From: a virus
Taxonomy: Duplodnaviria > Caudoviricetes
IMG/VR virus record: IMGVR_UViG_3300036762_000188
Length of the DNA: 64,000 nt
Reading direction: 5' to 3' (one strand)
Shown here in pieces: positions 3,107 to 43,624 of this stretch. The notes below the pieces were generated by a model. The model saw only the letters and a program-made list of their open reading frames with translations, was not told the origin of the DNA and made no database searches. A program made the position numbers and the translations under genes. Position 1 is the stretch's first letter, and each line of letters begins with the position of its first letter.

Positions 3107-3140
3107 ACTTACCATCACCCAGCTGTTATAAGTATAATGT

Positions 3141-4455: not shown

Positions 4456-4475
4456 TCTGTTATAAGTAAATTAAG

Positions 4476-5623: not shown

Positions 5624-5862
5624 AGTGTTATTACTGCTCAAAGGAATTCCCTCTGGAGGAAGTTCGTCCGTACGGTCTGGGTGGCTCCTATATATGCTAT
5701 CCATGTATGGTATCAGACACTCTCAGAGAGAAACTGGCTATTGAAGAGGTTACTAAACTCTTAAGTAAAATTAAGATTCCTGTAGTAACTAGCACGGGTA
5801 TAAAAGACCTTAGTGAGCTTGAAGATCAGGATGTATTACCGATCCTCTTTACTAAGGTTTAA
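5620..5862 (+). CDS. Small Zn-ribbon protein
   Basis: CYYC...RPYG..G..ICYPC; GGAGG RBS before the ATG at 5620. Confidence 0.6.
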   Translation: MKCYYCSKEFPLEEVRPYGLGGSYICYPCMVSDTLREKLAIEEVTKLLSKIKIPVVTSTGIKDLSELEDQDVLPILFTKV

Positions 5863-5865
5863 AGA

Positions 5866-6180
5866 ATTGCTGTAATCCCTTGAAGGATTAACTATGGCGG
5901 ACGCGGGTTCGAATCCCGCCAGCTCCACCAAATACGTCTTAGTGGTTTACCCCCAATGGCTGCTAGGGCGTATTTGATGGGGCTGTAATGGTTTCGACGT
6001 TGTAGTGAGGCTAGAGAGGCAGCACGAGAGGTGACCTAGCGTATATAGGCACAAACTATCTAAATGCAGATGCATATGAGATGAAAGCAGCAGCTTAAAC
6101 TGCGCTTTCCCAGGACGGCGGTCGCCTACGGGCCCTGGTCATCAAAGACCGCCCTCGAATTCGAATAGTGTTGCGACTAT
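5866..6180 (+). ncRNA. ssrA: Circularly permuted (two-piece) tmRNA, tag ADAYEMKAAA
   Basis: 3' acceptor piece GGACGCGGGTTCGAATCCCGCCAGCTCCACCA ends at 5930; intervening hairpin; 5' piece GGGGCTGTAATGGTTTCGAC starts at 5979; G3.U70 Ala identity pair; tag ORF 6066-6098 ends in AAA-stop. Outer ends are approximate. Confidence 0.9.
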
Positions 6181-6184
6181 AGGC

Positions 6185-6200
6185 AGGGGCTACGGCCCCT
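6185..6200 (+). terminator. Hairpin after tmRNA
   Basis: AGGGGC-TACG-GCCCCT. Confidence 0.5.
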
Positions 6201-15168: not shown

Positions 15169-15627
15169 ATGATACTACTAAAAGTAACGCTAGAGTGTAG
15201 TGATGGATTCGATGAACCTTATACGGAGGTACTCAATATGTTTACCGACGTAGACGTTAAGTGTATGTATCAACTATTCACCCTACCCCTAGATTTAGAA
15301 TACCTGATTAAGTACCGTGCATCCGTAAGCAGCGCTAAGGTCAGTATACACTTCTTCCCTCACAGCCCTTTCCTGGAAAAACATTTAGTTCAGACTGATC
15401 TAACCTCCTTAATTAACCTAGCCAGTATACCTATGAACTCGGAGTTGCTCAAAGAGTTTCAGGAGTATTATAAGGCTGGTATACTGGACGTGCCTACCGC
15501 TTTAATAACGTTCTTCAAGGAGAAGGGTATACCCTATCAGCCTATACCTGTAGAGACCTTCCGCTGTAACAAGGATTTAATCTGGTGTATTTTAGAGATT
15601 AACGCTAATAGGGACATAGTATGCTGA
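15169..15627 (+). CDS. Hypothetical protein
   Basis: Abuts neighbouring ORFs. Confidence 0.5.
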   Translation: MILLKVTLECSDGFDEPYTEVLNMFTDVDVKCMYQLFTLPLDLEYLIKYRASVSSAKVSIHFFPHSPFLEKHLVQTDLTSLINLASIPMNSELLKEFQEYYKAGILDVPTALITFFKEKGIPYQPIPVETFRCNKDLIWCILEINANRDIVC

Positions 15628-16610
15628 CTAGACAGGAGTTTAGAGAAGCGGTGCTCGCCAGGGACGGCGGCTGCGTGTTCTGCGATAAGCCTGCAGTGGA
15701 TGCACATCATATCCTAGAGCGCAGGCTATGGCCTGACGGCGGATATCACCTGGATAACGGAGTGGCAGTATGCTCCGACCATCACATGGAGTGCGAGAAG
15801 ACTTTAATATCTGTAGAAGACGTACGTTTAGCCTGCGGAGTCAAGACTGTAGTACCACCACATCTATATGCAGATCAGGCCTATGATAAGTGGGGTAACC
15901 CTATTCTAGAGAATGGTATGCGCCTACGCGGGGAACTATTCTTCGACGAGAGTGTACAGAAGGTCCTGTCCGAAGTACTGCATCTATTCGTTCATTGGGT
16001 TAAATACCCGCGTACTCATCACTTACCTTGGTCTGAAGGTATTAACAGTGACGACCGTATAATACCCTCGCTAGATGGTCTACAGGGCGATGTAGTGGTC
16101 ACTGAGAAGATGGACGGCGAGAATACTACTATGTATAGGGATTATATACACGCTCGTAGTGTAGATGGTAGGAGCCACCCTAGCCGCAGTTGGGTTAAGC
16201 AGTTCTGGAGTACCATATGCGCAGATATACCTGAAGGCTGGCGTATATGTGGGGAGAATATGTACGCGCAGCACTCTATAGCATACGATGCGCTTCCATC
16301 GTATTTCCTCGGATTCTCTATATGGAACGAGCATAATGTATGCCTGCCGTGGGATGAGACCCTGGAATGGTTCGAGCTACTAGGTATAACCCCTGTGCCT
16401 GTGATATACCGCGGTGTCTTCAGTGACAGTATACGAGATATCAAGAATGAGTGGGGTACTTGTGAAGGCTACGTGATAAGATCTACGGGCCCTATAGCAT
16501 ACGGTGAATTTAAACATAAGATAGCTAAGTTCGTAAGGGCCGGACATATCCAGACGATTAAACACTGGATGTATGGTCAACCTATTATACCTAACAAGCT
16601 GAGGTCGTGA
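15621..16610 (+). CDS. HNH endonuclease domain fused to an ATP-dependent RNA ligase domain
   Basis: RDGGCVFC..DAHHI..NGVAVCSDHH (HNH); KYPRTHHLPWS, TEKMDGEN (motif I), GENMYAQHS, EGYVIR, KFVR. Confidence 0.85.
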   Translation: MLTRQEFREAVLARDGGCVFCDKPAVDAHHILERRLWPDGGYHLDNGVAVCSDHHMECEKTLISVEDVRLACGVKTVVPPHLYADQAYDKWGNPILENGMRLRGELFFDESVQKVLSEVLHLFVHWVKYPRTHHLPWSEGINSDDRIIPSLDGLQGDVVVTEKMDGENTTMYRDYIHARSVDGRSHPSRSWVKQFWSTICADIPEGWRICGENMYAQHSIAYDALPSYFLGFSIWNEHNVCLPWDETLEWFELLGITPVPVIYRGVFSDSIRDIKNEWGTCEGYVIRSTGPIAYGEFKHKIAKFVRAGHIQTIKHWMYGQPIIPNKLRS

Positions 16611-17136: not shown

Positions 17137-17343
17137 ATGGACACTAAAGAAATAATTGAGTTTATCGAAGATAATACGACAGGCGGTAATTACTTAGTAG
17201 TAATCAATTATTATGTTGAAGACTTATTAAGATACGCACCTGCCGAGTTACAAAATCGAGCACAACGCATACTTAGTAGTGCAGGTGTTCGTAGCGGGGC
17301 CGGACGGAGCATGGGTATACATATAAGGAGTAGACATGACTAA
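17137..17343 (+). CDS. Hypothetical protein
   Basis: GGAG RBS. Confidence 0.5.
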   Translation: MDTKEIIEFIEDNTTGGNYLVVINYYVEDLLRYAPAELQNRAQRILSSAGVRSGAGRSMGIHIRSRHD

Positions 17344-17848
17344 GATCGTAAATTTATACGGAGGACCAGGGTCCGGTAAAAGTACTACTGCAGCAGCTTT
17401 ATTCGCAGAGATGAAGAATCAAGGGATTAACTGTGAATTGGTCACAGAGTACGCTAAGGAGTTAGTATGGGAGCAGTCTAATTGCAAACTAGACGATCAG
17501 CTGTACATATTCGCTAAGCAATACCGTAGGATCAGTAGGCTCTTAGGCAGGGTAGACTACGTGGTGACAGACGCACCTATACTTAATTCATTGGTATACG
17601 GCGTGACCACTGATACATTCAAAGACTTAGTGCGTGAGACTTATGCTTCTATGGATAACATAGACGTATTCCTGCGTAGGGTTAAGGTTTACAACCCTGC
17701 CGGCCGTCAGCAGACGGAGGGTCAGGCACGTGATCTTGACCAGGATATCGAGTTGATATTAAATGATATAGCTGACTTACACTATGTTAATGGGGATAGG
17801 AGTGCTATACCGCCTTTAATGGAGTTAATAGGACATGTCACGGAGTAG
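17336..17848 (+). CDS. P-loop kinase/ATPase (NadR-kinase/AAA_28-like)
   Basis: VNLYGGPGSGKST, ELVTEYAKELVW, VVTDAP, GRQQTE. Confidence 0.75.
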   Translation: MTKIVNLYGGPGSGKSTTAAALFAEMKNQGINCELVTEYAKELVWEQSNCKLDDQLYIFAKQYRRISRLLGRVDYVVTDAPILNSLVYGVTTDTFKDLVRETYASMDNIDVFLRRVKVYNPAGRQQTEGQARDLDQDIELILNDIADLHYVNGDRSAIPPLMELIGHVTE

Positions 17849-18355: not shown

Positions 18356-18525
18356 CAGTATGGAAGCGACTTGATCAGCATGGTAGATGGGAGCACAACC
18401 ATATTGAAAGCGGTTGGGTAGAAGGAACTCCGTTAGTTAAGTTCGAGTCTCAGGCTGGATGGGCTAACGGTAAATGGAAGCATGAACATAAGTACTTAAA
18501 GGATGGTGTAGTATGCAGTATGTAG
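18343..18525 (+). CDS. Hypothetical protein
   Basis: WEHNHIE.GW motif. Confidence 0.5.
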   Translation: MDKITVWKRLDQHGRWEHNHIESGWVEGTPLVKFESQAGWANGKWKHEHKYLKDGVVCSM

Positions 18526-18998
18526 ATATGGTACAATTATTAGCTAAGCCGGGACAGGATATTTTAGATGGCATGACTGCCGATAAGATGCATCTGCTGC
18601 ATATGGCCCTGGGTGTGGCTGGGGAGACCTTCGAGCTATTAAATAGCACTGACGCGGATAATTTTAAGGAAGAGGCCGGGGATCTGCTGTTCTATTTAGT
18701 AGGTCTCGGCGTGCCTACCGTAGAGGTGCCGTTTAGTAGTGATTTTGAATGGGGATTGACGTCTAGCGCGGAATCCGTAGTAGATCAGATTAAGAAGTAC
18801 TGTATCTACGGTAAGGACCTAGATACACAATCTCTAGAGACTGCAGTATCACAGGTTATGTGTTACTTGGAGTGCCTAGTCATTCAAGAAGGTTTGACTA
18901 TGGATGAGATCCGTACTAGTAACTATGATAAGCTTATGAATAAGCGCTACCCTAATGGTTATAGTGATGCTGCCGCTATAGCCCGGGCTGATAAATGA
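18513..18998 (+). CDS. MazG-like NTP pyrophosphohydrolase
   Basis: HMALGVAGETFE, KEEAGDLLFY, NYDKL..RYP.GYSD..A..RAD. Confidence 0.8.
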   Translation: MQYVDMVQLLAKPGQDILDGMTADKMHLLHMALGVAGETFELLNSTDADNFKEEAGDLLFYLVGLGVPTVEVPFSSDFEWGLTSSAESVVDQIKKYCIYGKDLDTQSLETAVSQVMCYLECLVIQEGLTMDEIRTSNYDKLMNKRYPNGYSDAAAIARADK

Positions 18999-19538: not shown

Positions 19539-19576
19539 CGTGTTATAAGTAAGGTAAGCAACTTTAGGAGTAACGT

Positions 19577-20122
19577 ATGCCTACTATAACTCGTGCATTA
19601 GCACAGATCCGGAAGCTAGACGCTGATATCTCAAATTTTAGATCTGATATATGTGGAGTGACCACTGCAGGTAAAACTGATGGCCAGGATACTGCCGCAA
19701 GAGAGGCTATATTCAAGGTTACCTTCCAGTCGATGGAAGATAAGGTGCGGGAGCGTAATCGCATCAAGATGGCTATCGTAAATTCTAATGCCACCAACAC
19801 CATTACAGTACCTCACTACGGTACTATAACGGTTGCTGCGGCGATAGAATTACGTGCTAGTAATGCCAACCGTAAGAGTTTACTAGATATGTACCAACGG
19901 TCGTACCAGAAGGCTTTACAGCAGATAGCTCAGGGTGTAGAATCTCTTCGTAAAGAAGATAAAAGCCCTGAACTAGTAACTTTAATGACCCCTACTCTAT
20001 GCGATCCAGTTAACATAGCAGGTAATTTAGATGCTATGCGGTCATCATGTATCGAATTCGACTCGGAAATCGACACACTTTTAAGTGAGCATAATGCCGT
20101 TACTACGGTAGAGTACTCCTAA
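19577..20122 (+). CDS. Alpha-helical coiled-coil protein (DIP1984/'septicolysin'-like)
   Basis: TITRALAQIRKLD..I, IKMAIVNSNA.NT, ITVAAAI, LCDP, EID..LSEHNAVT; own promoter motif at 19541 and AGGAG RBS. Confidence 0.65.
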   Translation: MPTITRALAQIRKLDADISNFRSDICGVTTAGKTDGQDTAAREAIFKVTFQSMEDKVRERNRIKMAIVNSNATNTITVPHYGTITVAAAIELRASNANRKSLLDMYQRSYQKALQQIAQGVESLRKEDKSPELVTLMTPTLCDPVNIAGNLDAMRSSCIEFDSEIDTLLSEHNAVTTVEYS

Positions 20123-20127
20123 CCCTT

Positions 20128-20357
20128 TTTGAACAGCCCGGCGAAACACAGAAGTGAATCCTATCTACAGGAGGTTACCTGCAGGAATTGACTATTAATT
20201 AATATACTAGATAAAAGTTCAGAGTTCAAAGCTCAAACTTCAGTATTCAATAGTTCAAATTTCAGCGTTCAACCTTCAAAGATTAAGGAAATCCTACATA
20301 CAAAGTTTAGTGGTTATTCACACCCTTGTGTAACAGTAGGCGGCCGGGATGTTCAAA
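20128..20357 (+). ncRNA. Putative structured ncRNA with a heptamer repeat array
   Basis: Terminal stem TTTGAACAGCCCGGC/GCCGGGATGTTCAAA; inner pairing ACACA..GTGAAT/ATTCAC..TGTGT; nine NNNNTCA units at 20215-20278. Confidence 0.65.
20215..20285 (+). repeat. Degenerate 7-nt tandem repeat, consensus RANTTCA
   Basis: AAGTTCA GAGTTCA AAGCTCA AACTTCA GTATTCA ATAGTTCA AATTTCA GCGTTCA ACCTTCA AAGATTA. Confidence 0.85.
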
Positions 20358-20379
20358 CCCTTATACTTATAGGATCATT

Positions 20380-40335: not shown

Positions 40336-40910
40336 CTAGATTTAAATGTGAACAGCGATACATAGTCTTGAAGTGTAAAGACCTTGACTACCTTGATAAC
40401 GAATCTATAGTGCAGTTGAATAATATTCAAATAGCTATAGATGATGGTAGAGCGTCCGATGGTAAACCACCGTTGAATGCAGTGGTAGTAGAGGAGGACT
40501 GGCCTGAATACGAAATGGTATGGCGCTCAATAGAGGCTAGATCAGTCTTAGCAACACCTACTCTCGCGCGGTGTCACATTGAGGAGGTACTTATGGAGAT
40601 GTTAGCTAACTTCCATAAAGAGATCCCTTTAGACTCTGGTATAGAAGGTTTAACCCCTGAGGCAGTATATGCCATACTCCACAGTAAACTGGCGTGCGAA
40701 TATCATACGGTAAAGGGTAAGAGTGTACCGGCCCCAGTAAAGGTAATACCCAGCATTTACTACTATGTATCAGATACCGGTAATGTACTTAGATGTGTAG
40801 TACATAGCAGTCCAACCGATATTGATAACTTCCGCCTTAAGACTGGTAACGTGTATCGTAATGAAGACGATGCCTTTTTGAATTATAAAGCTTCCGTGGA
40901 GTTACTATGA
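40332..40910 (+). CDS. Hypothetical two-domain protein
   Basis: N-terminal RYIVLK.KD..GKPPL..VVVE.DWPEYE.VW phage motif; C-terminal part paralogous to the next two genes. Confidence 0.65.
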   Translation: MTRFKCEQRYIVLKCKDLDYLDNESIVQLNNIQIAIDDGRASDGKPPLNAVVVEEDWPEYEMVWRSIEARSVLATPTLARCHIEEVLMEMLANFHKEIPLDSGIEGLTPEAVYAILHSKLACEYHTVKGKSVPAPVKVIPSIYYYVSDTGNVLRCVVHSSPTDIDNFRLKTGNVYRNEDDAFLNYKASVELL

Positions 40911-41266
40911 GTGAACTTATAGACGTACTCGATAAGATGCGTGCTAACTTAGCAGATGGTATACCTTTTAACCGCGGTATAGCCGGGGCCGACTTGCTCT
41001 ACGAAGATTTATCTAAGTGCTATGTGGTAAGGACTCACGTGGTCAACGGAGAGACTGTACCTGCACCCCTATCGTATCTACCAGCCCCATCTTACTTCTT
41101 CATAAATTCATCAGGGGCAGTCACTAGAGATTCTAACATTCGGTCACACGACGTGACAGAGGCCTATCCTGAGCTTAATCATACAGACACCTATCGTATT
41201 CGTACAGGTAATGTATTCAAAAGTAAACATGATGCTATGGTAAACTTATTGGCTACGATGAAGTGA
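40907..41266 (+). CDS. Hypothetical protein (paralog)
   Basis: V.G..VPAP...YF.I..G.V..D.YR..TGNVF. Confidence 0.6.
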   Translation: MSELIDVLDKMRANLADGIPFNRGIAGADLLYEDLSKCYVVRTHVVNGETVPAPLSYLPAPSYFFINSSGAVTRDSNIRSHDVTEAYPELNHTDTYRIRTGNVFKSKHDAMVNLLATMK

Positions 41267-41269
41267 CGG

Positions 41270-41461
41270 GTGGTATGTTACATAGACCTAGGAGACACTT
41301 ACTTCTACATAAGTGACGTCGGTACTGTAAATAAAGAGACTTACGAGAGAACTGCTGCAGACTGTTACAGGCTTGCCACAGGTAATACTTACTGTAGCCG
41401 TGAAGAGGCGGAGTCTTATATGATAGATGACATACGTAAAAAATATGAGGGTATTGTATGA
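41270..41461 (+). CDS. Hypothetical protein (paralog)
   Basis: YFYISD.G.V..D.YRLATGN.Y. Confidence 0.55.
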   Translation: MVCYIDLGDTYFYISDVGTVNKETYERTAADCYRLATGNTYCSREEAESYMIDDIRKKYEGIV

Positions 41462-41501
41462 AGATAGAACTGAGAGCCCGTACTATAGTGAGAGGTGGTC
41501 T

Positions 41502-42398
41502 ATGAGATTAATAGGTATGACGCCTACCGGCGTTCCGCACTTAGGTCACTACGTAAGCATCCTGCGTAATCCACAGGACTCACTATGCTTAGTAGCAGAC
41601 TATCACGCTATGGTTAAAGGATCTACTGACCTACTAGGTAACAGTCGGGTGCTTCACGCAGCCTTCGAGGCGACAGGCGCTGATCCTACCAAAATCTACA
41701 CTCAGTCCAGTATACCAGAGGTCTTGGAGTTATATTGGATCCTCAACTGCATGACCCCTAAGGGTATGCTCAACCGCTCACATGCTTACGTCAGCGCCCT
41801 ACAGGGTGATCAGGGTCGTATACAGGCTGGTCTCTTCAATTATCCAGTGCTCATGGCTGCAGACATCCTGTTAGTCAATGCGGATACGGTAGTAATAGGG
41901 CGCGATCAGTTATCCCATATGGAGTTAGCAGCCTTCTTAGCTAACCGCTTCAACAAACGCTACGGCGAGGTGTTCCGCGTACCCGCGTATGAGGTAACTG
42001 ATATACTTCCCGGCAGGGATGGGTTGAAGATGGGTAAGAGCGCCGGTAATAGTATACCGCTGTTCTCTTCACCCGAGCAATTGCTTAAGGATATCAAAGG
42101 TATTAAGACGGATAGTAGACTCCCAGGGGAGCCTAAGGATCTTATACCTATCTTCGACTTGTGGAAGGCCTTCGCTACCGAGGAGCAGACGGAGGAGATG
42201 CGGGTAGCCTTCAGAGAGGGTATAGGCTGGGGTGACTTTAAGGTCAAGCTATTCAACCTTATTAACGATGAAATCAAGGACGCACGCGAGCGATACTATG
42301 AGCTAATGAATAAGCCATATCAGCCAGTAAACGACGTGTATTATACTGCACGCAGTACCTTAGATAAAGTCAAAGAGCTAGTATGGAGTAAGACATGA
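41502..42398 (+). CDS. trpS: Tryptophanyl-tRNA synthetase
   Basis: G.TPTG.PHLGHY (HIGH), ADYHA, YTQS.IPE, GLFNYPVLMAADIL, G.DQ..H.E, LPG.DG.KMGKS (KMSKS); GAGG RBS before ATG 41502. Confidence 0.93.
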   Translation: MRLIGMTPTGVPHLGHYVSILRNPQDSLCLVADYHAMVKGSTDLLGNSRVLHAAFEATGADPTKIYTQSSIPEVLELYWILNCMTPKGMLNRSHAYVSALQGDQGRIQAGLFNYPVLMAADILLVNADTVVIGRDQLSHMELAAFLANRFNKRYGEVFRVPAYEVTDILPGRDGLKMGKSAGNSIPLFSSPEQLLKDIKGIKTDSRLPGEPKDLIPIFDLWKAFATEEQTEEMRVAFREGIGWGDFKVKLFNLINDEIKDARERYYELMNKPYQPVNDVYYTARSTLDKVKELVWSKT

Positions 42399-43234
42399 AG
42401 AATTACTTAGACTTAATACACTACGTTAAAGATAACGGCCGTACCGCCCAGACCCGTAGCGGTGAGACCCTGCGCGTATTTGATTACAAGCTAGAATACG
42501 ACGTGCGCTATGGCTTCCCTGCAGTAACTACTAAACGACTACCGTTCAACCTTATATCCGGGGAGCTACTCTGGTTCCTTAACGGCTATACCACCCTGCG
42601 TAGCCTCAGAAGGCTCTCAGGGCTCGCAGAGGACGCGCGGACCATCTGGACTGATGATTACCTTAGATGGAGCGCTGGAAGCTCTGAGCGCCCTCTCAAC
42701 GACCCTCAGGACCTAGGTAAGCTGTATGGGTACCAGTGGCGTCGTGGGGTGGATCAGGTAGCCCGTCTGGTCGATACCATACAGAAGGATCCTACTAGCC
42801 GCTACCTACGTGTGGAAGCCTGGAATCCAGAGACGGTAGTTAACGGCGAGGCTGCCCTACCGCCCTGCCACACCGGCTTCACAGTATTCGTAGAGGATGG
42901 ATATCTAGATCTTAAATGGCGCCAGCGCTCTGTAGACGTGTTCCTCGGACTGCCCTTTAACATAGCCAGCTACGCGCTGCTACTACACATACTAGCCAGT
43001 ATCACTGGGCTAATCCCGCGCCGACTCATAGGCGATCTGGACGACGTGCATATTTACACGGCTCACATGAGCGCAGTGGATGAGCAGTTAGCCCGTACCC
43101 CTAAGGCTCTACCCACCCTGGTCATGCCGGAAATACCCTCCCTCCTCAGTGTAACTGATCTAACCTGCCATGACTTCAGATTAGACGGCTATGAACCACA
43201 TCCTACTATAAAAGCCCCTCTACTGGTAGGATAA
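42395..43234 (+). CDS. thyA: Thymidylate synthase
   Basis: FPAVTTK, GELLWFL, YGYQWR, LPPCH, QRSVD.FLGLPFNIASY, HIY. Confidence 0.95.
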   Translation: MKNYLDLIHYVKDNGRTAQTRSGETLRVFDYKLEYDVRYGFPAVTTKRLPFNLISGELLWFLNGYTTLRSLRRLSGLAEDARTIWTDDYLRWSAGSSERPLNDPQDLGKLYGYQWRRGVDQVARLVDTIQKDPTSRYLRVEAWNPETVVNGEAALPPCHTGFTVFVEDGYLDLKWRQRSVDVFLGLPFNIASYALLLHILASITGLIPRRLIGDLDDVHIYTAHMSAVDEQLARTPKALPTLVMPEIPSLLSVTDLTCHDFRLDGYEPHPTIKAPLLVG

Positions 43235-43276
43235 TACCCGTATAGTGTTATAAGTACATTATACTAAGGAGGTACT

Positions 43277-43624
43277 ATGTACTTATATCGTCTAGAATCA
43301 TTTGATAAGTTTATAGGCTACGTCAATAGTGGCCCCTGGCGCTGTGACAATGCCTTCGCAGCAGGTATAGTACCTCATGACATAGATGATCTCTCTCATC
43401 CACATCCCTATGATGATGGACTTACTATACACGAAAACGAGGTGTGTGGAGTAAGGTCTATGAGGGATATAGACCACTGGTTTCCTCGTAGGTTTAAGAC
43501 CCGCTCTAAGTTCAGGGTAGTCAAGTATTACGTACCTACGGAGCACTGTAAGATCGGCCGCCGTCAGGTAGTATTCCCTGCCGAGAAGGCTCGAGTAGTA
43601 CACACCCTATACATCAAGGATTAA
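43277..43624 (+). CDS. Hypothetical protein (possible degenerate ART-like fold)
   Basis: YLYR.E..GPW..HP.P.DDG..WF..QVVF; AGGAGG RBS; promoter motif at 43246. Confidence 0.6.
   Translation: MYLYRLESFDKFIGYVNSGPWRCDNAFAAGIVPHDIDDLSHPHPYDDGLTIHENEVCGVRSMRDIDHWFPRRFKTRSKFRVVKYYVPTEHCKIGRRQVVFPAEKARVVHTLYIKD

Follow-up and report, generated by a model that had tools for sequence, protein, structure and literature searches.

What is the repetitive and apparently structured stretch that follows a small protein gene in a tRNA-rich region of a tailed-phage genome, and does it belong with that gene? The question is raised by the virus record IMGVR_UViG_3300036762_000188 (Duplodnaviria; Caudoviricetes), of which a stretch of 64,000 nucleotides (nt), referred to here as the window, was analyzed; the complete virus record, to which this stretch belongs, measures 148,929 bp and has direct terminal repeats. 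In the window, a gene for a 181-amino-acid (aa) protein is followed by an element of 232 nt (20127-20358, + strand) that is closed by a long stem (P1) and holds an array of 7-nt units (heptads). An earlier note, made from the sequence alone, had suggested that the gene and the element form a candidate ribonucleoprotein (RNP) system. Our analysis assigns the element to a new family of RNAs that resembles Y RNAs in layout and has a new candidate protein as its partner; the family is real, non-random and conserved. The RNA and the gene, which belongs to phrog_1491 and is a homologue of T5.085 of phage T5, have been passed on as a unit in phages whose hosts are Gram-negative or Gram-positive, and lie for the most part in tRNA clusters. 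We are thus highly confident that a conserved structured RNA is linked to the phrog_1491 gene; what the RNA and the protein do together is a more tentative matter, and should be considered as such when referring to the explanations weighed below.

Joint inheritance of the RNA and the phrog_1491 gene

One protein-homology search with the window protein returned the query alone, and a related-locus search with this single protein returned none. An exhaustive HMMER search yielded 592 representative clusters at E <= 0.001 and, by tblastn, 644 phage records carry a homologue. The phages concerned are T5-like Demerecviridae, rV5-like Vequintavirinae, Flaumdravirus and other Pseudomonas phages, Agrican-like jumbo phages, one C. 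difficile phage and Bacillus Bastille-like phages. The same order, namely the gene and then an element of 230-460 nt, is found in T5-like, rV5-like, Flaumdravirus, Agrican-like jumbo, C. difficile and Bacillus phages, and a heptad array lies 3' of the gene at every homologous locus examined for which enough downstream sequence was available. The coupling of a structured RNA to the upstream gene, as proposed in the earlier note, is thus borne out at all readable homologous loci.

In the annotated phages examined, the homologue is followed by a gap of 400-640 nt before the next annotated gene (longer where tRNAs are unannotated), and these gaps contain the same type of 7-nt array. The locus-wide maximum of self-identity at lag 7 falls ~80-440 nt (mostly 100-310 nt) past the stop codon of the homologue in 47 of 50 loci, and the distance from the stop codon to P1 is 5-55 nt in most loci. 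In T5, the element lies between T5.085 and T5.084 (~355 nt, downstream of T5.085; NC_005859 about 43,140-43,495, minus strand) and scores 56.8 bits with the covariance model R1 described below. Gene and RNA occur together in 441 T5-like records at 80-100% identity. The T5 record also holds 'rnaX', a 719-nt stable RNA of unknown function beside tRNA-Arg, which is a different locus (L060 2849-3567, T5 40848-41566; loci are designated by L and a number).

A separate form of the linkage is seen in L059, a locus of a GC-rich phage. Here, the scaffold is lost and short heptad arrays are kept on both flanks of the gene, with four or five CAACNNU/UUCAAAA heptads at 517-545 (in the 5' leader) and at 1176-1212 (after the stop codon), the downstream array being followed by a terminator-like hairpin. 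The RNA bears no annotation in the phage records examined, no description of it was found in the papers searched, and Rfam 15 gave no match at the element, at either gathering or permissive thresholds.

Architecture of the element

The features of the module in the window are listed below in order of position.

19541-19550, + strand: promoter-like motif TGTTATAAGT, of the extended -10 type, 27 nt upstream of the start codon
19577-20122, + strand: gene for the 181-aa protein, a phrog_1491 member and homologue of T5.085
20128-20142, + strand: 5' strand of P1, pairing with 20343-20357 with one mismatch (-23.7 kcal/mol)
20142-20145, + strand: CGAA junction motif, directly after the P1 5' strand
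20146-20150 and 20154-20159, + strand: ACACA and GTGAAT, the 5' strands of the long-range pairing, read from the sequence
20160-20213, + strand: variable 5' hairpin region, from the minimum-free-energy (MFE) fold and comparison with L001-L007, L031, L035 and others
20214-20284, + strand: heptad array of nine or ten NNUUCAR units, fitting the family consensus (N)UYAAAG
20289-20297, + strand: AAAUCC motif and 5' strand of the core helix, CCUAC (CCTAC at 20293-20297), where model R1 aligns the window
20316-20321 and 20327-20331, + strand: ATTCAC and TGTGT, the 3' partners of the long-range pairing, inside the core helix, read from the sequence
20336-20343, + strand: 3' strand of the core helix, GUAGG (20336-20340), and the GCGG junction (family consensus GGCUG)
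20343-20357, + strand: 3' strand of P1, the terminal closing stem of 14-15 bp

The window copy is the shortest member of the family, and its P1 begins 5 nt past the stop codon of the 181-aa gene. The closing stem, with its one mismatch, is present where the earlier note had placed it, as are all of the inner pairings it had listed (ACACA/TGTGT, GTGAAT/ATTCAC and CCTAC/GTAGG), and a 240-nt stretch folds at -63.7 kcal/mol, with z = -4.84 relative to shuffled sequences. Positions 20160-20213 correspond to the place at which an H-type pseudoknot and, optionally, tRNA-like inserts are found in other members; in the window copy, no canonical 5' H-type pseudoknot was recognized in the sequence reading or the MFE fold, and only simple hairpins are seen. 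A direct repeat, AACCCTT, stands on both sides of the closing stem (20121-20127 and 20356-20362) and may be a processing signal or a chance match.

The periodicity of the array was confirmed. Nine TCA triplets are found at 20219-20278 with spacings of 7, 7, 7, 7, 8, 7, 7 and 7 nt, TRF reports a period of 7 with 9.6 copies, and self-identity at lag 7 reaches its window-wide maximum (0.67) at 20209, so that no stronger lag-7 signal exists in the 64 kb. Outside the array, the longest + strand chain of TCA at a spacing of 7 or 8 nt in the window numbers two, and the best chain of any other trinucleotide outside the array numbers four. The window units (UUCAAAG, UUCAGAG etc.) agree with the family consensus, which was derived from 276 units in 39 arrays and reads N-U-Y-A-A-A-G, with the three A positions conserved at 98%, 87% and 87% and the G at 85%. 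The spacing between successive units is 7 in 113 cases, with 14-15 and 21 being next, and the array is low in G (14% G and 41% A).

Beyond the array, the members share one order of parts: P1, YGAA, a 5' H-type pseudoknot, a variable middle, the heptad array, AAAUCC, the core helix, GGCUG and P1 again. P1 joins the element end to end by 12-30 bp in 38 distinct loci with unrelated stem sequences. Among its pairs in these 38 loci, G-U accounts for 159 of 874 (18%), and in 34 of the 38 the gene strand gives the more stable P1 (mean -26.3 vs -20.3 kcal/mol). The 5' strand of P1 is followed by CGAA in 21 and by YGAA in 28 of the 38, opposite the GGCUG that precedes the 3' strand; the window has GCGG at this junction in place of the family GCUG. 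The 5' pseudoknot (S1, S2, S1', UAAA, S2') is clear in T5-like and rV5-like phages, L031, L035, L040, L051 and others, and its second stem, as read by eye, changes fully between phages with pairing preserved. The long-range pairing joins the 5' region to the loop inside the core helix as AUCUUAC/GUAAGAU in T5-like phages and as AUCUUGC/ACAAGAU in rV5-like phages, the latter being a compensatory change relative to the former.

Toward the 3' end, AAAUC is nearly invariant in alignment A3, and AAAUCC is followed by the helix whose partner strand immediately precedes GGCUG. RNAalifold, applied to a MAFFT alignment of 38 3' domains, recovers this AAAUCC helix with compensatory changes. For example, pair 19-86 is UA in 19 sequences, AU in 10, UG in 5, CG in 3 and GC in 1, and pair 20-85 is GC in 20, UA in 8, AU in 5 and CG in 4. 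In total, 95% of the core-helix cells are paired, as compared to 26-48% when the partner is slid, and the covariation score was reached by none of 500 shuffles. As CCTAC/GTAGG covaries and the inner pairings cross it, the core is pseudoknotted, a possibility that the earlier note had raised for these two strands.

Covariance model R1 was built from these 38 sequences, with the window left out. Searched against both strands of the 64-kb window, R1 gave a single match at 20277-20368 (+ strand; 27.9 bits, E 0.0015), and against the whole 149-kb genome, likewise a single match (E 0.0033). Four test loci were fetched later via distant family proteins, and the model matches L057 and L058 among them, downstream of the gene and on the gene strand. 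Terminator-like hairpins with a U-run were seen by eye after P1 in L011, L038, L050 and L056, and such a terminator is annotated in the KIL1 record.

The upstream protein and its genomic surroundings

The window protein matches phrog_1491 at E 4e-25. No match was found in Pfam, NCBIfam or PADLOC, none to ToxN or AbiQ, and the protein atlas returned unnamed viral clusters only. The phrog_1491 label 'tail fiber protein' is very likely an annotation artefact, as the gene lies among early and tRNA genes and as one re-annotation of T5 places T5.085 in the unknown class (PMC11879866 supplement). In the same source, a CRISPRi-ART knock-down of T5.085 scored 'Not Fit' in a laboratory host, i.e., the knock-down is without a fitness effect in the laboratory.

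AlphaFold2, with an alignment of 92 sequences, models the protein at a pLDDT of 96 as two long antiparallel helices with further helices and a small beta-sheet at one tip. The all-helical coiled coil expected in the earlier note therefore holds in that the 181 aa are mostly helical; the sheet at the tip means that the protein is not a pure coiled coil. The nearest structure in the PDB is 3kdq, an uncharacterized DUF6847 (PF20935) protein, with a profile E of 0.0099 and, in a Foldseek comparison, a probability of 0.98, TM of 0.55-0.63 and E of 0.14. PF20935 also gives weak, sub-threshold matches in 8 of the 92 family members. As the DUF6847 family is itself uncharacterized, the match to 3kdq explains nothing. 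The sole invariant residues are N71 and N173, each within one of two SNAxT motifs, and S70, N71, N173, T176 and the basic K12, R60, K64 and K93 are conserved in at least 89% of the 92 sequences (given as the alignment consensus at window positions, the window itself having R12 and R93).

When four copies were modelled, self-association was predicted, with an ipSAE of 0.51 for the partner copy as compared to 0.00 for the best of three controls. Of 30 proteins solved as same-chain pairs, 20 attained this mark, as did 1 of 23 solved as single chains, counts that should be taken as holding only roughly, because the modelling employed four copies and the alignment made in this analysis. At least 91% of contacts are the same between runs, with a partner pLDDT of at least 82. 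As two copies touch each other along their long helices, a dimer is supported, not a ring, so that, of the ring- or filament-forming protein envisaged in the earlier note, self-association is the part that is predicted.

Genes in the window are almost all on the + strand and include, according to ARAGORN and Rfam, 14 tRNA genes and a permuted tmRNA. The tmRNA gene (5838-6189) is circularly permuted and of the two-piece type, with the tag ADAYEMKAAA. The module sits within a tRNA-rich region, with tRNAs at 14.5-14.9 kb and 21.4-23.8 kb. The TGTTATAAGT motif upstream of the 181-aa gene, which the earlier note had taken for a promoter, is recurrent. Its nine exact copies in the window are on the + strand only (353, 3124, 4458, 11982, 19541, 32639, 43246, 46465 and 53698) and, allowing up to one mismatch, 17 matches are found where 7.9 are expected, 16 of them on the + strand. 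The copy at 3124 stands directly before a tRNA-like element, that at 4458 directly before tRNA-Arg, and several of the nine in all are immediately upstream of tRNA or tRNA-like genes or open reading frames. The copy at 19541 was not called in a two-hexamer sigma-70 scan; the motif is likely a phage promoter of the extended -10 type.

Genes downstream of the element vary between phages. An AAA+ ATPase gene, for which the earlier note had suggested a role in remodelling the assembly, adjoins the module in the window and L015/L016, is near it in L011, and is absent beside it in T5-like, rV5-like and other groups examined. As these neighbours share generic AAA similarity only and are not conserved, the ATPase was rejected as a part of the module. 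An RNA-repair neighbourhood had likewise been suggested, and an RNA ligase gene is indeed found near the module in the window, L011 and KIL1, these being the only such cases. In the window, the ligase gene (15621-16610) has a product of 329 aa, in which an RNA ligase domain and, N-terminally, a weak match to HNH were detected, and is followed downstream by an AAA_28 kinase-like gene (17336-17848) and a MazG-like gene (18513-18998).

Likeness to known RNAs and possible functions

The closest parallel in layout is offered by bacterial Y RNAs, in which the ends are paired, the motif GNCGAAN0-1G lies close to the 5' end and a tRNA-like module is present (Chen et al. 2014, PMC4201824). The phage RNA shares the long stem formed by the 5' and 3' ends and a modular build with a second effector module, and it has the motif in part, as the CGAA seen after the 5' strand in 21 of the 38 loci. 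At the position of the Y-RNA motif, the window reads GGCGAAAC, in a pairing context that differs from the Rfam YrlA consensus. Some phage members also hold a YrlA-type tRNA mimic, and both kinds of RNA have links to tRNA processing and RNA-repair neighbourhoods. A module that resembles a permuted tRNA and comprises a T arm, a capped acceptor hairpin and a D arm is found in L007 (2238-2301; Erwinia phage Simmy50) and L038 (2193-2301), with YrlA (RF02553) scores of 44.5 and 37.8 bits, respectively, both under the gathering score of 69. The families differ in that the partner in the phages is a helical DUF6847-like protein and not Ro60/TROVE, and in that Y RNAs are not characterized by a 7-nt array, an AAAUCC-helix-GGCUG core or the 5' pseudoknot. 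YrlA gave no match in the window even at E <= 10, the window RNA being without a tRNA-like domain, and no TROVE/Ro60 gene (PF05731) was found in the complete 148,929-bp genome, while such genes were detected in control genomes. The window RNA should thus be considered Y-RNA-like in its layout and not a member of the Y RNAs.

A coupling to tRNAs extends beyond these mimics. The flanks of 27 of 42 loci carry tRNAs, all on the same strand. In rV5-like phages, tRNA-Thr(UGU) starts at or within a few bases of the 3' end of P1 (L005 2535, L019 2525, L023 2523, L004 2545), so that RNase P would set the 3' end of the RNA. A tRNA follows P1 directly in L034 and L053 and precedes P1 in L040. In L045 (2302-2373), L046 (2299-2371) and L053 (2210-2284), tRNA or tRNA-like genes lie inside P1, between the 5' domain and the array; by analogy with two-piece tmRNA, excising these embedded tRNAs would give two RNA pieces joined by P1.

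Other known systems resemble the module in single respects. TRAP and the trp leader, with its 11 G/UAG triplets, provide the example of a short motif repeated at constant spacing in single-stranded RNA, and this likeness suggests one site per protein subunit. The phage motif, however, is UYAAAG with a 7-nt period, the array is set in a closed scaffold RNA and not in an mRNA leader, and the protein is a predicted helical dimer and not a beta-sandwich 11-mer ring. Like tmRNA, GOLLD and ROOL, the members of the family would be stable structured RNAs among phage tRNA genes, with H-type pseudoknots and processing shared with tRNAs. No similarity to GOLLD or ROOL was found in Rfam. Identity with tmRNA was rejected, as the element has no acceptor or CCA end and no tag reading frame, and as ARAGORN and Rfam place tmRNA only at 5838-6189.

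Several further identities were tried and rejected. A CRISPR-like reading fails as the units are too short. A coding reading was dismissed as the T5 copy seemed, on inspection and without computation, to have stops in all frames; in the window array, one frame is open, without a listed start. By eye, UYAAAG showed no consistent fit as a mimic or partner of the anticodon loops of tRNA-Leu, tRNA-Phe or tRNA-Lys, of T-loops or of the anti-Shine-Dalgarno sequence, nor as a site for RNase E, Hfq or Rho.

The explanation that we favor, tentatively and with a little less than even confidence, is that the element is a scaffold RNA similar to Y RNAs, with heptads by which the upstream protein is recruited into an RNP. 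The RNA would be co-transcribed with the upstream gene, on the + strand and from the motif at 19541, as a stable non-coding RNA. Its pseudoknotted core (AAAUCC-helix-GGCUG and the long-range pairing) would present the low-G, A/U-rich 7-nt array, which its composition suggests is held single-stranded, as a platform on which the upstream protein could dock in several copies, probably as dimers. P1 and the flanking tRNAs would set the ends of the RNA via RNase III and RNase P-type processing. The RNP may intervene in RNA or tRNA metabolism, be it that of the host or of the phage, or may counter RNA-targeting defence, and its function would be accessory and not core. The array is seen as a protein-binding platform because of the linkage of gene and RNA, above all in L059; from the sequences, binding of the heptads by the upstream protein is a real possibility, which we rate somewhat short of even. 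A bolder form of this reading, which we consider rather unlikely, describes a new class of phage RNP in which a UYAAAG ruler is read unit by unit by DUF6847-type dimers, giving a protein lattice on RNA. In such an assembly, the tRNA mimic of some phages would be tethered, and the particle might capture or redirect a tRNA- or RNA-processing enzyme or a defence enzyme.

There are several points that weigh against the favored explanation and need to be considered. The modelled contacts, in a protein-only model, join one pair of copies and give no ring or filament, and the protein family is mildly acidic (median pI 5.95, with 74% below 6.5), which is unusual for an RNA-binding protein. P1 of the window has zero G-U pairs and is hence not informative on the strand, and no terminator was found in the scan after it. 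The anchors for the covariation helix were placed by requiring at least 4-5 pairs and, as they were thus selected for pairing, the covariation counts lean towards the helix, such that the independent tests are the model matches. R1 also missed L056, whose membership was accepted by eye alone, from P1, AAAUCC...GGGGGCUG and the terminator, the array being degenerate.

The acidity of the protein is in line with another explanation, which we regard as unlikely, in which the RNA is a multi-site sponge or decoy that works without the upstream protein, the gene being merely co-transcribed or functionally related. The target would be a conserved host single-strand RNA-binding protein or ribonuclease recognizing UYAAAG, or an RNA-targeting defence nuclease. 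CsrB, RsmY and RsmZ are the known precedent, as dedicated non-coding RNAs with many copies of one short protein-binding motif, and the phage RNA likewise offers many identical short sites on a stable scaffold. The module lies among tRNA genes, some tRNAs being known counter-defence tools (PMC11464382), and the 'Not Fit' score of the T5.085 knock-down in the laboratory host is what would be expected of an accessory or anti-defence function (PMC11879866 supplement). The motifs of CsrB, RsmY and RsmZ, however, are GGA in hairpin loops at irregular spacing, with a host regulator as target, whereas the phage repeats are strictly periodic and have a candidate partner encoded next door. No host factor with UYAAAG specificity could be named, and the adjacency of gene and array across very distant phages, even without the scaffold in L059, is hard to explain without a direct relationship between the two. 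This adjacency would also suit a cis-acting element of the 3' untranslated region (UTR) or operon, be it an autoregulatory operator or a module for transcript processing or stability. The short distance from stop codon to P1, the heptads in both the 5' and 3' UTR of L059 and the window itself, in which the AAA+ gene is probably on the same transcript as there is no terminator, all fit such an element. We nonetheless find it improbable, as a pseudoknotted scaffold of 230-460 nt with tRNA mimics and terminators of its own is excessive for an operator, and as the downstream genes differ among phages.

Explanations in which the protein has no part, or an opposite part, are less probable still. ROOL and GOLLD RNAs are reported to self-assemble into multimeric particles, and the phage RNA, a large structured RNA beside tRNA genes, might do the same via its A/U heptads, many of which contain near-palindromic halves such as AAAGCUU. 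The pairs so formed would be weak A-U pairs, there is no Rfam similarity to either RNA, and the strict linkage to a protein gene would be left unexplained, so that self-assembly ranks below a cis-acting role. A pair of the type III toxin-antitoxin kind, in which a toxic protein is neutralized by the repeat RNA, was entertained in the earlier note and now appears very improbable. ToxI, CptI and TenpI are tandem-repeat RNAs adjoining a small protein gene in a context of phage-host conflict, and phages carry pseudo-ToxI decoys. These antitoxins, however, consist of pseudoknot repeats of ~34-45 nt (~36 nt in the comparison made with the note) upstream of an endoribonuclease toxin that excises them, and none of this is found in the window, where the units are of 7 nt, the array follows the gene and does not precede it, the fold is a helical bundle and no nuclease match was obtained from PADLOC or Pfam. 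The module is also carried by virulent phages and not by defence islands. Least probable of all is that the element acts as DNA, be it an origin, a packaging site or a set of iterons. A series of short direct repeats may represent iterons, but the compensatory changes in the helices, the 18% of G-U pairs in P1 and its strand asymmetry in 34 of 38 loci, the terminators and tRNA junctions at the ends of the element, and a 7-bp period that is out of phase with the DNA helix all speak for RNA.

Phage T5 carries the module, which occurs in no fewer than 644 sequenced phages, with both Gram-negative and Gram-positive hosts, and, as T5 and the T5-like phages of the BASEL collection carry it, it is directly testable in E. 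coli K-12. If the RNP explanation is true, a new architecture would be added to the few periodic protein-RNA assemblies, and the Y-RNA concept would extend beyond Ro60. Should the dimers indeed form a lattice on the RNA, this would provide the first function for DUF6847/phrog_1491 proteins and a new stable RNA for T5. The module points to an as yet unexplored level at which phages may control RNA or tRNA biology in the host, or RNA-targeting defences.

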